Below, piece by piece: positions 567 through 3,919 of a stretch of 4,210 bases of DNA. Origin of the DNA: a virus (lineage: Duplodnaviria > Heunggongvirae > Uroviricota > Caudoviricetes); the IMG/VR virus record IMGVR_UViG_2657245091_000011; one strand, written 5' to 3'. The notes under the pieces are model-generated. The model worked only from the letters and a program-made list of their open reading frames with translations, did no database searches and was not told the DNA's origin. The first letter of the stretch is position 1, and each line of letters begins with the position of its first letter. Made by a program: the position numbers and the translations under genes.

Positions 567-799
567 AACCCCCCCCCATTTTCACAATCAGTAATCAGGA
601 TGGTTTTAGCCTCATTCAGTGCCATATCAGCACTAAATTGCATAACAGCCAGTGAGTGAGGAACGAAAGCCCCGGGATATTCTGTTTCGCTGGTGGCGTG
701 CTTATGTGCCCTGTCCGCGATAACAGAAATATCAATCAGCGCGTGCATCAGCGTTTTGATGGCTTCGGCGGCTGCGTCCGGTGTGGTTTTATTGTGCAT
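539..799 (-). CDS. hypothetical small protein (86 aa from ATG 799; the track's longer form starts at GTG 841)
   Basis: Within track ORF 539..841; internal ATG at 799..797 has AGGGGG 6 nt upstream, so preferred as the start; E. coli-like codon choice (CTG, GCG, GAA, ACC); C-terminal GGG codons are the G9 tract. Confidence 0.5.
   Translation of the reverse strand: MHNKTTPDAAAEAIKTLMHALIDISVIADRAHKHATSETEYPGAFVPHSLAVMQFSADMALNEAKTILITDCENGGGLCVMIVLIP
569..577. repeat. C9 (plus) / G9 (minus) homopolymer tract at the junction of two ORFs
   Basis: Nine consecutive C at 569-577, read directly from the sequence. Confidence 0.95.
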
Positions 800-989
800 A
801 GGTTTCCCCCTGGCGAATACGGGCGGCAAATACAGCAACACAACCGGACGGGCAAAGGTTACGCGCTTCGCGTTCCGTCCAGGCGGTTACGTGGATGATT
901 TGAGATTCTCCGGCACTCAGTGCCAGAAAACGCCACACAAAGGCAGTTTGTGTGTGCGCCAGACGTGGGGTATGCTGTGTTCCAGCCAT
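789..989 (-). CDS. hypothetical small protein (66 aa), first gene of the minus-strand operon
   Basis: ATG at 989..987 with AGGAG 8 nt upstream; same frame as the 3' end of the 318-aa track ORF; its stop lies 8 nt downstream of the next ORF's ATG (coupled). Confidence 0.4.
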   Translation of the reverse strand: MAGTQHTPRLAHTQTAFVWRFLALSAGESQIIHVTAWTEREARNLCPSGCVAVFAARIRQGETYAQ

Positions 990-1019
990 AATCGTTACTC
1001 CTGTTAACGGTTTGGTTAG

Positions 1020-1053
1020 ACGCCCCGCTACTGCCGCAAACAGTTCGGGGCGT
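1020..1053 (-). promoter_or_regulatory. GC-rich hairpin in the putative 5' leader of the minus-strand operon
   Basis: ACGCCCCG (1020-1027) pairs with CGGGGCGT (1046-1053) around an 18-nt loop; sits between the putative promoter (~1087-1115) and the first ORF; no U-tract follows on the minus strand. Confidence 0.3.
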
Positions 1054-1086
1054 TGTCGTTTACATCCTCTTACTGAGGTGTGATTT

Positions 1087-1115
1087 AAATTAAATTCAAC
1101 TGAATCACAGGTCAA
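1087..1115 (-). promoter_or_regulatory. putative sigma70-type promoter for the minus-strand small-ORF operon
   Basis: On the minus strand, -35 TTGACC (plus 1110-1115), 17-bp spacer, -10 TAATTT (plus 1087-1092); hexamers identified by eye only. Confidence 0.3.
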
Positions 1116-1156
1116 GTGTTTTTTGTGATTCTTTTTTGTGTATACTGAATCACATC
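1097..1156. promoter_or_regulatory. operator-like triple repeat between divergent promoters
   Basis: ACTGAATCACA at 1099-1109 and 1144-1154 (11/11 identical), with an inverted copy TGTGATTC at 1124-1131; centres about 22-23 bp apart; the third copy overlaps the TATACT -10 (1141-1146) upstream of the RHH gene. Confidence 0.5.
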
Positions 1157-1176
1157 TTTTGTTTAGGAGAATGCAC

Positions 1177-1482
1177 ATGGCAAAAAACACTATCAACGAC
1201 AAATCAAAACAGATTTCAATTCGTATCCCACATGATGCTTTTGATGGCATGGAATCCGTAAAACTGGACGGCGAAAGCAACGCCGGATTCATAGTAACCG
1301 CCATGCGCGGGGAGATCGCCCGCCGCCAGGCAGAAGGAAGCAGTGAAAATCCTCTGATTTCTTCTCTCGATGCATTGGCGCAAGTGGAAAAAATTGGTAT
1401 TAAAGCTACGGAAGAACTCGGGCAACTTATCGCCATCGCACGCGAAGAACTCCAGCGCCGCAAGGCCAAAGAAGCGGAATAG
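1177..1482 (+). CDS. small DNA-binding protein, probably ribbon-helix-helix (CopG/Arc-like) transcriptional regulator (101 aa)
   Basis: AGGAGA 6 nt upstream of ATG 1177 (the track's GTG 1138 start is less likely); N-terminal KQISIRIPHDAFDGMESVKL...IVTAMRGEIARR fits a strand-helix-helix pattern by eye; intrinsic terminator immediately downstream. Confidence 0.6.
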   Translation: MAKNTINDKSKQISIRIPHDAFDGMESVKLDGESNAGFIVTAMRGEIARRQAEGSSENPLISSLDALAQVEKIGIKATEELGQLIAIAREELQRRKAKEAE

Positions 1483-1513
1483 TCCACCAGCAAACCACCA
1501 CACTGATCACATT

Positions 1514-1541
1514 GGCCACCGTGACAGGTGGCCTTTTCTTT
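1514..1541 (+). terminator. rho-independent terminator of the RHH gene
   Basis: GGCCACC / GGTGGCC 7-bp perfect stem, 6-nt loop, followed by TTTTCTTT. Confidence 0.7.
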
Positions 1542-1557
1542 GCCTGTTATCCGGCAA

Positions 1558-1588
1558 TTGTGGCGCTTCTTCACACAGTTGATATAAT
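1558..1588 (+). promoter_or_regulatory. extended -10 promoter (TGaTATAAT)
   Basis: TG at 1580-1581 and consensus TATAAT at 1583-1588; weak -35-like TTGTGG at 1558-1563; no protein-coding ORF downstream on this strand. Confidence 0.45.
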
Positions 1589-1594
1589 TCCCCT

Positions 1595-1667
1595 GCACTG
1601 ATCCAATTTTTCGCAGCAGGTTAATTGTTCGCAAGGGCGCTCTGGTAACGGGGCGCTTTTTGTTTTT
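1595..1667 (+). ncRNA. candidate small RNA (~70 nt) between the extended -10 promoter and an intrinsic terminator
   Basis: Promoter about 7 nt upstream; no ATG or SD in the interval; ends at a hairpin plus U-tract; possible 5' stem CCTGC (1592-1596) / GCAGG (1616-1620). Prediction only. Confidence 0.3.
1635..1667 (+). terminator. intrinsic terminator-like hairpin with GUAA tetraloop and U-tract
   Basis: GCGC 1637-1640 pairs with GCGC 1653-1656, extended by C:G and G:U pairs; loop GTAA 1645-1648; followed by TTTTTGTTTTT (1657-1667). Confidence 0.45.
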
Positions 1668-1779
1668 ACCCACCAGCACAATAAAAATCTTCATTTTCCA
1701 TTTTTGTAAAATTTCATGCTTTCCGGACGACTGGCCATATGTCATTTTTTAGCAGAAGATTTTGCCTTGCTGGTGGGTA
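1667..1779. repeat. 113-bp imperfect palindrome: 12-bp perfect inverted repeat plus 9-bp inner inverted repeat around an AT-rich 62-bp core
   Basis: TACCCACCAGCA (1667-1678) against TGCTGGTGGGTA (1768-1779); AAAATCTTC (1684-1692) against GAAGATTTT (1755-1763); 21 of about 26 arm positions pair. Confidence 0.6.
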
Positions 1780-1825
1780 GCTTCTCGGTTAACACGATGT
1801 ACCGTATAATCAGCACCGCGTGTGG

Positions 1826-2404
1826 TTACTGAATACGCTCACCAAAGTAAAACTCAGGCTGATATTCACGTATCAGCCTTTTTTCTTCTTCCTCCAGCTC
1901 ACGCTTTTTGCGCTTACATGCCTGTAGCTCCCTCCCCTTCTGACTAGCACTTAACTGATATTGCTCTTTACGGCGAGAAAAGTCCTGTAATGCGCCCCAC
2001 GGGATACCATAAGCCCCCGTTTTTCTGATTCCTGGTATCACATTCCTGAATACCCAGTTACTGAAACGATGGGCGAATGTGCCTTGCGTCGTTGCTTTGC
2101 GGCTACGGGCTATTAGTTTGTAGAAACCTGACTCAGAGATAATGCTCATATTCTGATTTCCTCCTGGGGTGTAAGTTAAATTTACTCCCTTTTCATCATC
2201 ATCAAGCATCTGCAACGCCGTACGCGAATTGGTCAGTTCCAGCGCAGCGCAGACATCCTTTGCAACAAACCACGGATCGCCGTTCAGATACACCACGCGA
2301 ACGTTCACACTATCAAAGCGCAGAACGACCAGATCACGAAAATCACAGATTTTTTTTACATGACGTGCGTCACCCTTGCCCGTCACGGCAATATTTTTAT
2401 TCAT
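1826..2404 (-). CDS. Bro-N domain protein (phage antirepressor-like N-terminal domain) with a charged C-terminal tail (192 aa)
   Basis: ORF in supplied track; N-terminal region shows Bro-N hallmarks by eye (VVYLNGDPWFVAKDVCAALELTN...DDDEK...SESGFYKLIARSRK...FSNWVFRNVIPGIRKTGAYG); GAGG about 10 nt upstream of the ATG. Confidence 0.75.
   Translation of the reverse strand: MNKNIAVTGKGDARHVKKICDFRDLVVLRFDSVNVRVVYLNGDPWFVAKDVCAALELTNSRTALQMLDDDEKGVNLTYTPGGNQNMSIISESGFYKLIARSRKATTQGTFAHRFSNWVFRNVIPGIRKTGAYGIPWGALQDFSRRKEQYQLSASQKGRELQACKRKKRELEEEEKRLIREYQPEFYFGERIQ
1856..1884 (+). terminator. plus-strand terminator-like hairpin embedded in the 3' end of the Bro-N gene
   Basis: GGCTGATA (1857-1864) / TATCAGCC (1871-1878) 8-bp perfect stem, 6-nt loop, then TTTTTT (1879-1884); the opposite orientation has an interrupted U-tract. 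Confidence 0.4.
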
Positions 2405-2680: not shown

Positions 2681-3919
2681 TCAACCATTTACTACTCTTA
2701 AACCTTTCATACCACCGGATCTATTAATTACCCCTTTTCTCGCATCATCAAAAAAATCACCGACCCATTGCATCATGATCTTACGCTGTTCTAGATAAAT
2801 AGTTCTATTATAAATATCTCTTATTTTATCACCACTTTTATGCGCCAATGCAGCCTCGATTACATCGGGGTTAAATCCCTCCTCATTTAAAAGCGTACTC
2901 CACATTGAACGAAAACCATGTAACGTTACAATCCCTTTGAACTTACTGGCAGCAATTGGGGTCTTGATAGTATTCCTCCCCATAGGCGCATCTTTTGTTC
3001 TGGAGGAAAAAAACACATAACGCCCTCTTTTTATTTCCTGCATTGTTCTGAGGATACTAATAGCCTGTGATGACAAGGGAACAACATGTTCACGATGGCA
3101 TTTCATTTTATGCGCGGGGATAATCCACAAGCCAGAATCAAAATCAATCTCTGACCACTCTGCTTTAATCGCCTCACCTGGCCTGACCATTGTCAATATC
3201 TGGAATAAAAGTGCATTATGAGCTATTTGATAGGTATGAGGCACACTATCCCACCAGCTCAGAAATTCAGGCAATCTTTCAACAGGTAGTGCTGCTAATG
3301 ATTTATTTTTCTTTCCTGTGAATGCAGTCTTTATCTTAAGTAATGGATTTGCTTTCAATGCTCCACAATTTACAGCATAATTCATAATTTCATTTAATCT
3401 TGATATTAATTTTTTTTGCAACGCATTCTTATCGGATACGGCATCCAGAGCATTAATAGCTACTGGTGCTGTAATTTTTTCTATACTGTACTTACCAAAG
3501 AAAGGAACAAGATATTTGTATACTTCATATTCGATATTATACAGCGTAGGTTTCCGCAATTCAGATCCCTTTTTAAAAGCGAACCATGCATTAGCAACAG
3601 CTTCAAATGTCTGTAGATTTTTTAGTGACATCTCAATTTTACGATTTTTCTTCTCCGTCACTGGATCAACTCCACGTGCAATCATTCGCCGAAGTTCATC
3701 ACGTACTTCCCGTGCTTCCGCGAGTGAGAATTCAGGAAAACGTCCTATCGTGTATGTCTGCCGTTTCTTCGTTATCGGATGGCTATAACGGAAACGCCAC
3801 ACTTTCCCACCGGCTTTACTCACATTCAGCAATAAACCGAACCCATCATAAACGGCATAGTCCTTTTCACGTGGTTTCATCCCCTTAACTTCAGTCACGG
3901 TTAATGGCTTTACCGACAT
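2681..3919 (-). CDS. int: site-specific tyrosine recombinase / phage integrase, P4/CP4-like family (412 aa)
   Basis: ORF in supplied track; N-terminal arm-binding-type region (KPLTVTEVKGMKPREKDYAVYDGFGLLLNVSKAGGKVWRFRY); C-terminal catalytic motifs HGFRSMW (H-x-x-R) and IRDIYNRTIYLEQRKIMMQW containing the likely catalytic Tyr; GAGGG 6 nt upstream of the ATG. Confidence 0.93.
   Translation of the reverse strand: MSVKPLTVTEVKGMKPREKDYAVYDGFGLLLNVSKAGGKVWRFRYSHPITKKRQTYTIGRFPEFSLAEAREVRDELRRMIARGVDPVTEKKNRKIEMSLKNLQTFEAVANAWFAFKKGSELRKPTLYNIEYEVYKYLVPFFGKYSIEKITAPVAINALDAVSDKNALQKKLISRLNEIMNYAVNCGALKANPLLKIKTAFTGKKNKSLAALPVERLPEFLSWWDSVPHTYQIAHNALLFQILTMVRPGEAIKAEWSEIDFDSGLWIIPAHKMKCHREHVVPLSSQAISILRTMQEIKRGRYVFFSSRTKDAPMGRNTIKTPIAASKFKGIVTLHGFRSMWSTLLNEEGFNPDVIEAALAHKSGDKIRDIYNRTIYLEQRKIMMQWVGDFFDDARKGVINRSGGMKGLRVVNG

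Follow-up and report, generated by a model that had tools for sequence, protein, structure and literature searches.

Does the interval between a ribbon-helix-helix (RHH) regulator gene and the convergent BRO-N gene of IMG/VR virus record IMGVR_UViG_2657245091_000011 hold a gene for a small RNA (sRNA), and what might such an RNA do? An initial annotation of this stretch of DNA, all 4,210 nucleotides of which we call the window, had joined a promoter-like element, a short interval and a terminator into a candidate sRNA unit. Here we report that these parts belong to a cassette which, as judged by comparison of related loci, is a conserved, mobile, non-coding and strand-specific unit at one fixed place in a large Escherichia coli family of phage-inducible chromosomal islands (PICIs), and that the cassette is probably a real, unannotated sRNA gene. 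On this computational basis it is best filed as a candidate new RNA family of a familiar kind, the short regulatory RNA of a mobile element.

Layout and conservation of the cassette

The TGnTATAAT element annotated at 1580-1588 stands there, as TGATATAAT, on the plus strand after the RHH gene (end 1482) and its terminator T1 (1514-1533), and the region into which it points was rightly described as free of plus-strand reading frames, with no plus-strand open reading frame (ORF) of at least 30 aa between 1583 and 1659. The hairpin with a GUAA loop and the U-tract, placed about 70 nt downstream by the same annotation, are present; the hairpin starts ~38 nt past the predicted start (~1595), and it is the transcript that measures 67-73 nt. 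The cassette is laid out as follows:

1514-1541, plus: T1, the intrinsic terminator of the RHH gene, a stem-loop (1514-1533) followed by TTTTCTTT; left edge of the cassette in most loci
1553-1579, plus: promoter-upstream segment, containing GGCAATTGTGGCGCTTC and a weak -35-like TTGTGG (1558-1563) 19 nt from the -10; not universally conserved
1580-1588, plus: extended -10 promoter element TGATATAAT, the only TGNTATAAT match in the window
1595-1667, plus: predicted small RNA of 67-73 nt, its start inferred 7 nt past the -10 and its 3' end within the U-tract 1657-1667
1595-1611, plus: variable 5' segment, predicted unpaired, with a T-run and 1-nt length differences among copies
1612-1630, plus: conserved core CGCAGCAGGTTAATTGTTC, predicted mostly unpaired, with minor changes across all four promoter/5' types
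1633-1667, plus: T2, the small-RNA terminator, a 12-bp stem with a GUAA loop (1633-1660) and UUUUUGUUUUU (1657-1667); right edge of the cassette

T1 insulates the predicted sRNA promoter from upstream transcription, and the core is a candidate pairing or chaperone-binding region. A minus-strand promoter within the core was considered and rejected: TTGCGA-17-AAAAAT fits at only 8/12 positions, has its -10 in the variable segment and was not called by the promoter scan.

When the window was compared by BLAST with 5,426 complete E. coli genomes, 313 matched, many of them only at 1514-1664/1668 with differing surroundings. A search pattern of two blocks, which contained neither the -10 nor the terminators, yielded 57 IMG/VR contigs, mostly of satellite size, and 39 unique copies found by this pattern were compared. 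Among these 39 copies, positions 1514-1668 are conserved and the flanks are swapped, as in a mosaic island: the upstream flanks are of at least four kinds, and four unrelated downstream flanks start exactly past the U-tract, that is, after GCGCTTTTTGTT(T/A)T. In two loci (L018 and L019) similarity starts only at GGCAATTG, window position 1553, T1 being absent and promoter and sRNA being kept. Because the flanks differ and similarity in these two loci begins at 1553, the minimal shared unit consists of promoter, RNA and terminator. As a separate observation, in many loci (flank type c; L007/L008 2650-2700 and related loci) an internal part of a BRO-N gene (equivalent to window ~2111-2150) is joined directly 6 nt past the T2 hairpin core, a junction whose sequence indicates a deletion or recombination broken at the terminator.

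Positions 1580-1588, which the search pattern excluded, are invariant in 39/39 unique copies and form the only fully invariant window among the 108 nine-column windows outside the two search blocks; columns 1579 and 1589 both vary, and 45% of the other unconstrained columns are invariant. One BLAST-found copy carries GGATATAAT in place of TGATATAAT, and in two loci (L078 and L087) the segment 1553-1579 is replaced with TGATATAAT retained. Searching with the terminator, or by way of the neighbouring DUF4222 gene, brought up three further promoter types:

Type I: TGATATAAT (extended -10); example, this window
Type II: TTCACT-17-TATAAT; example, L072
Type III: TTCACA-17-TACAAT; example, L076
Type IV: TTGCCC-17-TATCAT; example, L110, with TTGTCC-17-TATTAT in L073

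In types II-IV the upstream and 5' sequences are unrelated, the promoter lies at the same distance and a -35-like hexamer stands 17 nt before the -10; all four types join a common core (CGCAGYRGGTTAATTGTTC; also written CGCAGYRGGTTAWYTGTTC) and the terminator. At the level of sequence alone, a sigma-70 promoter of the kind expected of an independent sRNA gene is found. This promoter shares no meaningful 9-mers and no operator with the divergent RHH/icd promoter.

All 15 distinct variants of T2 fold on the plus strand (11-12 bp, -13.7 to -19.4 kcal/mol). For the reverse complements the range is -5.4 to -13.1 kcal/mol, the plus strand being 6-11 kcal/mol more stable in each; the hairpin is plus-strand-specific because its G-U pairs turn into C-A mismatches on the other strand. 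The stem occurs in two alternative versions, which MAFFT aligns in different registers, so the variants were folded singly and give no single pair count. Changes within the stem are wobble or compensatory, including a C-G to U-A double change in L102/L142, and the pairing of T1 is kept through a two-sided change (GGCCACC/GGTGGCC to GGCGACC/GGTCGCC). T2 thus has the form of an intrinsic terminator, a 12-bp G+C-rich hairpin with a U-tract, kept in 15 variants and strand-specific. RNAalifold found the terminator to be the only conserved structure, with no conserved 5' stem-loop, and in every variant the first 40 nt at the 5' end are predicted to be open.

A covariance model of the RNA (R1) scores 90.9 bits (E=5e-21) at 1595-1667 of the window, whose own sequence is in the model; each satellite locus yields a single strong match (E = 1e-8 to 1e-21), always in the same relative orientation, and unrelated controls yield none. 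R1 could serve to annotate the RNA. Rfam gave no match over the unit, searched in the window at E up to 10 and in 14 loci at the gathering score.

The T-run inside the unit counts 5, 6 or 7 T depending on the copy, and such single-base indels between copies exclude a reading frame. No conserved frame emerged from the ORF list or profile searches, and no Icd, Pfam-type or toxin-like ORF was found in the unit. On the minus strand, the N-terminal sequence of the ORF changes with each flank type; a type I toxin-antitoxin system was rejected, as the minus-strand ORF at 1571-1681 (36 aa) is not hydrophobic and has this varying N-terminus.

Position, host element and prevalence

The unit has one and the same orientation in 84/84 loci: upstream of it, on the other strand, are icd and DUF4222, and bro/alpA/int face it from downstream. 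In 63/84 loci an RHH homologue precedes it on its own strand, and in none is that gene arranged otherwise; the RHH-like gene is the sole plus-strand gene of the region, and the predicted sRNA unit is always downstream of it on the same strand. The neighbouring genes in the window are these:

789-989, minus: Icd-like gene, the first of a minus-strand operon that continues with DUF4222, RepA helicase, SSB and a protease-capsid fusion
1177-1482, plus: YlcI/YnfO-family RHH-like regulator gene (NCBIfam NF041551, E=2.8e-18; RefSeq annotation)
1826-2404, minus: BRO-N domain gene, convergent with the cassette; int, alpA and bro transcripts head towards the cassette
2464-2688, minus: AlpA-like helix-turn-helix (HTH) gene
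2681-3919, minus: tyrosine integrase gene

When loci were picked through DUF4222 alone (spanning int to icd), 49/53 carried the unit; two of the four exceptions are L133, which has a deletion, and L125, which has an unrelated promoter-like and terminator unit at that place. The latter (L125 1901-1996, minus; TTGTCC-17-TAAGAT, ~35 nt, hairpin GCGGTGCATACGCGCCGC and U-tract) has a counterpart in L018/L019, where a unit of this type replaces T1 upstream of the type I sRNA (L019 1747-1833); this may be another small RNA, unrelated to the present one, or just one more operon terminator.

The window is identical (BLAST) to a chromosome stretch of E. coli O45:H2 FWSEC0003, where it forms positions 7519-11728 of locus L001 and belongs to an element of ~10 kb. 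This satellite interrupts a lambdoid prophage in its terminase large-subunit gene (halves at L001 458-1588 and 11602-12606) and is co-oriented with that gene, and its relatives L002-L004 occupy the same terminase insertion site. The satellite carries int, HTH/alpA, BRO-N, Icd-like, DUF4222, RepA helicase, SSB and protease-capsid fusion genes; from this gene content, its ~10 kb size and its co-oriented insertion in a late gene, the host element is recognizable as a helper-embedded Gram-negative PICI (HE-PICI). Such an arrangement is known, and Terminase_1 is among its insertion sites (class A:Terminase_1; PMC10111431).

Type IV alone occurs in 929/5,426 complete E. coli genomes, which puts the prevalence of the cassette at no less than 17% of complete E. 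coli genomes (at least 929/5,426). The type IV homologue in the Sp7 prophage of O157:H7 Sakai, roughly 85 nt long, lies at NC_002695.2 ~1,596,818-1,596,902 on the minus strand, antisense to the doubtful ORF ECs_1576; type IV loci are without T1. Carriers of the cassette include O157:H7 OI-51/Sp7, the island bearing the type III secretion regulator RgdR, and the DUF4222 protein belongs to the family of RgdR/ECs1581 of this island (PMC3378721). Phage records gave no match to the cassette and E. coli plasmid records one, and a scan of one genome per species with the type I-specific pattern gave two chance matches only (Leptospira and a Dethiobacteria metagenome-assembled genome).

Several points weigh against a genuine sRNA gene. 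In the single sequence alone the features of the cassette are weak and not beyond chance: TGNTATAAT is expected 0.20 times per window and was present at least once in 39/200 shuffles, the fold z-score of the unit in the window sequence is -1.86, and the -35 of the type I promoter is poor, the site not being called by a generic promoter scan. The cassette stands above chance because it is conserved across related loci, and some of this conservation reflects recent spread, since the copies (from E. coli or untyped viral contigs) are only 80-100% identical. The type IV RNA could simply be the 3' untranslated region (UTR) of the upstream operon, there being no T1 there. The 63 orphan RNAs found bound to Hfq by cross-linking and analysis of cDNA (Hfq-CRAC; Tree et al. 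2014), a thresholded list that comes from one set of conditions and includes RNAs antisense to annotated ORFs, do not contain the Sakai homologue, itself of a subtype that differs from the window's. Nor is any fragment of it among the 150 novel EDL933 non-coding RNA sequences of Neuhaus et al. (2017, Table S5), a thresholded list checked by sequence fragments only; no transcript support came from these tables (for Tree et al., Table S2) or from the transcription start site supplements for EDL933, some of these files being truncated. The sRNA unit first proposed is supported, as far as sequence analysis reaches, by conservation, -10 invariance, hairpin upkeep and fixed position, and draws no transcript support from the published lists. 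In the literature we found no paper describing an sRNA at this PICI position.

Possible roles of the RNA

Lambda OOP RNA is a short constitutive antisense RNA convergent with cII. As the best explanation overall we tentatively propose an independent transcription unit with an OOP-like antisense role, to which we give somewhat less than an even chance; the antisense mechanism specifically is doubtful. The extended -10 sigma-70 promoter TGATATAAT would start an RNA near 1595, and this RNA, 67-73 nt long, would comprise an unstructured 5' part, the core 1612-1630 and the strong intrinsic terminator 1633-1667, and would act like OOP as a constitutive antisense RNA. Transcripts from the int/alpA/bro side would meet no efficient minus-strand terminator at the cassette and for that reason would be fully complementary to the small RNA; in a helper-embedded element these oncoming transcripts could include read-through from the helper late operon. 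RNA duplex formation together with head-on transcription would destabilise or cut off the oncoming transcripts, and the integration/Bro zone would be uncoupled from the regulator and replication zone during satellite quiescence.

The OOP-like role is favoured because no satellite target beats shuffled RNAs, because stop codons lie near T2, because a U-tract is missing on the minus strand and because the late operon is co-oriented. In RNAduplex comparisons with satellite sequences the best value was -33 kcal/mol, against -32 to -40 for shuffled RNAs, and a contiguous-pairing scan of 63 loci (satellites and flanking prophage DNA) gave 674 real and 767 null matches. Several flank types place the stop codon of alpA or of an antirepressor gene only 15-30 nt from T2, and no further terminator intervenes; read on the minus strand, both T1 and T2 lack a U-tract, and the late operon of the helper points the same way as the embedded element (PMC10111431). 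To judge from these comparisons, the sole certain complementarity of the RNA is to transcripts crossing from the opposite side. Regulation of the neighbouring operon, one of the two roles first suggested for the RNA, finds no backing, as pairing with the operon leaders is no better than with shuffled RNAs; for the other, control of bro, only a cis-antisense form is possible, and in this window it requires bro transcripts reaching at least 158 nt beyond the stop codon.

Two features sit badly with an antisense role. In the window 158 nt separate the end of bro from T2, and a terminator-like hairpin (1856-1879) lies within bro, so overlap with the bro mRNA needs read-through, and the core beside the terminator is better conserved than the 5' part, which such a role leaves unexplained. 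The likeness to OOP is one of layout (a ~70-77 nt class, an own promoter, an intrinsic terminator, convergence with a regulatory gene of a temperate element, and a predicted complementarity to the 3' region of the oncoming mRNA), a sequence relationship having been neither sought nor found; the nearest convergent gene here ends those 158 nt away.

The strongest rival to the antisense reading, and in our view an unlikely one, is a trans-acting, chaperone-dependent sRNA in which core and terminator would form an Hfq/ProQ scaffold and the variable 5' part a seed for host or helper-phage mRNAs or sRNAs. The attachment of four different 5' segments to one conserved 3' half is what such an RNA would show, as are the unpaired 5' 40 nt and the strong terminator, whose U-tail of 5+5 or more follows a U-rich (type I) or A-rich (types II/III) stretch; the unit is predicted to have a 3' end of Hfq type, in which a hairpin with a long U-tail stands beside a single-stranded U- or A-rich stretch. 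The same conserved-3'/variable-5' layout has been reported for EcOnc01-03 (PMC4104026). Yet the Hfq-CRAC orphan list, which takes in ORF-antisense RNAs, lacks the Sakai homologue, and no complementary site beyond shuffled controls was found in satellites or flanking prophage DNA (674 against 767).

Improbable, too, is an insulator acting by transcriptional interference, in which T1 and T2 would stop plus-strand transcription into bro/alpA/int, the head-on promoter would oppose int-side polymerase and the RNA would be a by-product. The fixed orientation between convergent gene blocks, the two tandem plus-strand terminators, the status of promoter and terminator as best-kept parts, and the unrelated promoter-like and terminator unit in the same place in L125 all agree with it, but a pure insulator needs neither a 19-nt core kept in four promoter types nor a fixed length of 67-85 nt. 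We consider it very improbable that there is no separate gene at all, in which case T2 would serve the RHH operon as a back-up tandem terminator or a 3'-UTR element and the resemblance to a -10 would be chance. No other stretch of the cassette is as conserved as the -10 block, the -10 is re-created in three unrelated upstream sequences, and L018/L019 lost T1 and kept the promoter; such a view would be helped by the type IV loci (Sakai Sp7), where T1 is missing and T2 is the only terminator of the upstream operon, and by a promoter that is not significant in a single sequence. A decayed minus-strand protein gene, the RefSeq "Icd-like protein, incomplete" pseudogene, can be dismissed: the Prokaryotic Genome Annotation Pipeline calls such pseudogenes over the homologous stretch in several genomes and a 318-aa minus-strand ORF (789-1745) crosses the cassette in the window, but the Icd-like profile fits only residues 269-312, which are the real icd (789-989) and not the cassette part, the copies differ by single-base indels and by an N-terminal sequence peculiar to each flank type, and the pseudogene calls can be traced to alignment with over-extended ORFs, WP_423779810 among them.

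ORFs of this kind, very long and antisense to both the RHH gene and the cassette, occur at window 789-1745 (minus), L007 1605-2537 and L071 6732-7475 (ECs_1576). They are annotated "Icd-like" or hypothetical; only their last ~48 residues fit the Icd profile, ECs_1576 matches nothing, and all appear to be over-called frames from which pseudogene annotations in other genomes arise. The cassette would explain this recurring RefSeq mis-annotation, both the "Icd-like protein, incomplete" and the over-long Icd ORFs.

The antisense reading has a bolder form, which we regard as improbable speculation: a family-wide "anti-induction" RNA of Gram-negative PICIs that would pair with alpA or helper late-operon transcripts and set the threshold for helper switch-on, the interchangeable 5' segments giving element-specific control among co-resident satellites. 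If true, it would be an RNA layer of PICI repression. We know of no repressor mechanism established for PICIs, and to our knowledge it is not well understood how Gram-negative PICIs are silenced or how AlpA-driven induction is gated; a conserved RNA gene where the integration/Bro and regulator/replication zones meet would be an obvious candidate component of PICI silencing.

Known RNAs and other features of the region

Immunity RNAs of the P4 CI/C4 type have been reported in some PICI "Bro zones" (PMC10111431). The unit resembles P4 CI, P1/P7 C4 and IsrK (RF01695, RF01394) as a satellite or phage small RNA between integration and replication genes. Identity with any of them was rejected: the window has no match at E up to 10, and the unit points against the int-alpA-bro and the Icd-replication genes in 84/84 loci. 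CI and C4 are processed from, and co-oriented with, the leader of the operon they control, whereas the present unit has its own promoter and is opposed to the operon. One locus, L073, has two C4 matches and one isrK match at 1417-2080 (minus) upstream of Icd-like genes, like the c4-icd order of phage P1; it holds the present RNA too, the C4/isrK matches lying elsewhere and on the opposite strand to it.

AgvB/AsxR (EcOnc01-03), the prophage anti-sRNAs of enterohaemorrhagic E. coli (PMC4104026), are likewise short mobile-element RNAs convergent to their neighbours, and in them too the 3' half is conserved and the 5' segment varies. They differ in occupying a lambdoid moron site and in their shown Hfq binding, whereas the present unit is without an Rfam match and its Sakai homologue is absent from the same Hfq data. 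The int-alpA RNA motif (RF02996) is a candidate RNA of the same element class, found in L072 at 5164-5231 (minus); it is encoded on the other strand, between int and alpA, is unrelated in sequence and has no match in the window. Three other candidates were set aside by location: Esr41 is in SpLE1, EcOnc33 (~71 nt) in the Sp6 moron region, and PasA-D in lambdoid late or structural regions.

Chi sites (GCTGGTGG or its complement) number 5 in the 4.2-kb window against 0.10 expected from shuffles, and two copies bracket the sRNA cassette:

689-696, minus: Chi site
1484-1491, plus: Chi complement CCACCAGC, left flank of the cassette, 2 nt past the RHH stop codon
1670-1677, plus: Chi complement CCACCAGC, right flank of the cassette, 3 nt past the U-tract and in the left arm of the repeat 1667-1678/1768-1779
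1769-1776, minus: Chi site
3251-3258, plus: Chi site

In 45 satellite-size contigs (loci L012-L068) Chi is the most frequent 8-mer: their 499 kb contain 494 copies, and the runner-up occurs less than half as often. The 15.5 kb of Sakai Sp7 (L071 4712-20172) contain 13 copies and the 10.5 kb outside it 2; for the FWSEC0003 satellite the counts are 13 within its 10 kb and 3 in the adjoining 8.3 kb of prophage. In type IV the -35 overlaps a Chi site. A search of the available literature found no paper on Chi enrichment in PICIs. Two opposed Chi sites make up a perfect 12-bp inverted repeat, TACCCACCAGCA / TGCTGGTGGGTA, at 1667-1678 / 1768-1779. The repeat travels with the bro gene and is almost invariant in 11 unique copies, hence offers no covariation to judge by; together with a 9-bp pair (1684-1692/1755-1763) it could fold, in the interval from the sRNA terminator to bro, into a hairpin of ~113 nt (~-37 kcal/mol for each strand).

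The terminator-like hairpin at 1856-1879 is called on both strands and lies within the last 20 BRO-N codons, the bro stop codon being at 1826-1828. On the other side of the RHH gene, the divergent RHH/icd control region (1079-1154) contains ACTGAATCACA twice, at 1099-1109 and 1144-1154. With TGTGATT at 1079-1085 and 1124-1130, these copies form two inverted pairs, TGTGATT-N17-AATCACA, which from their arrangement are likely operator sites.

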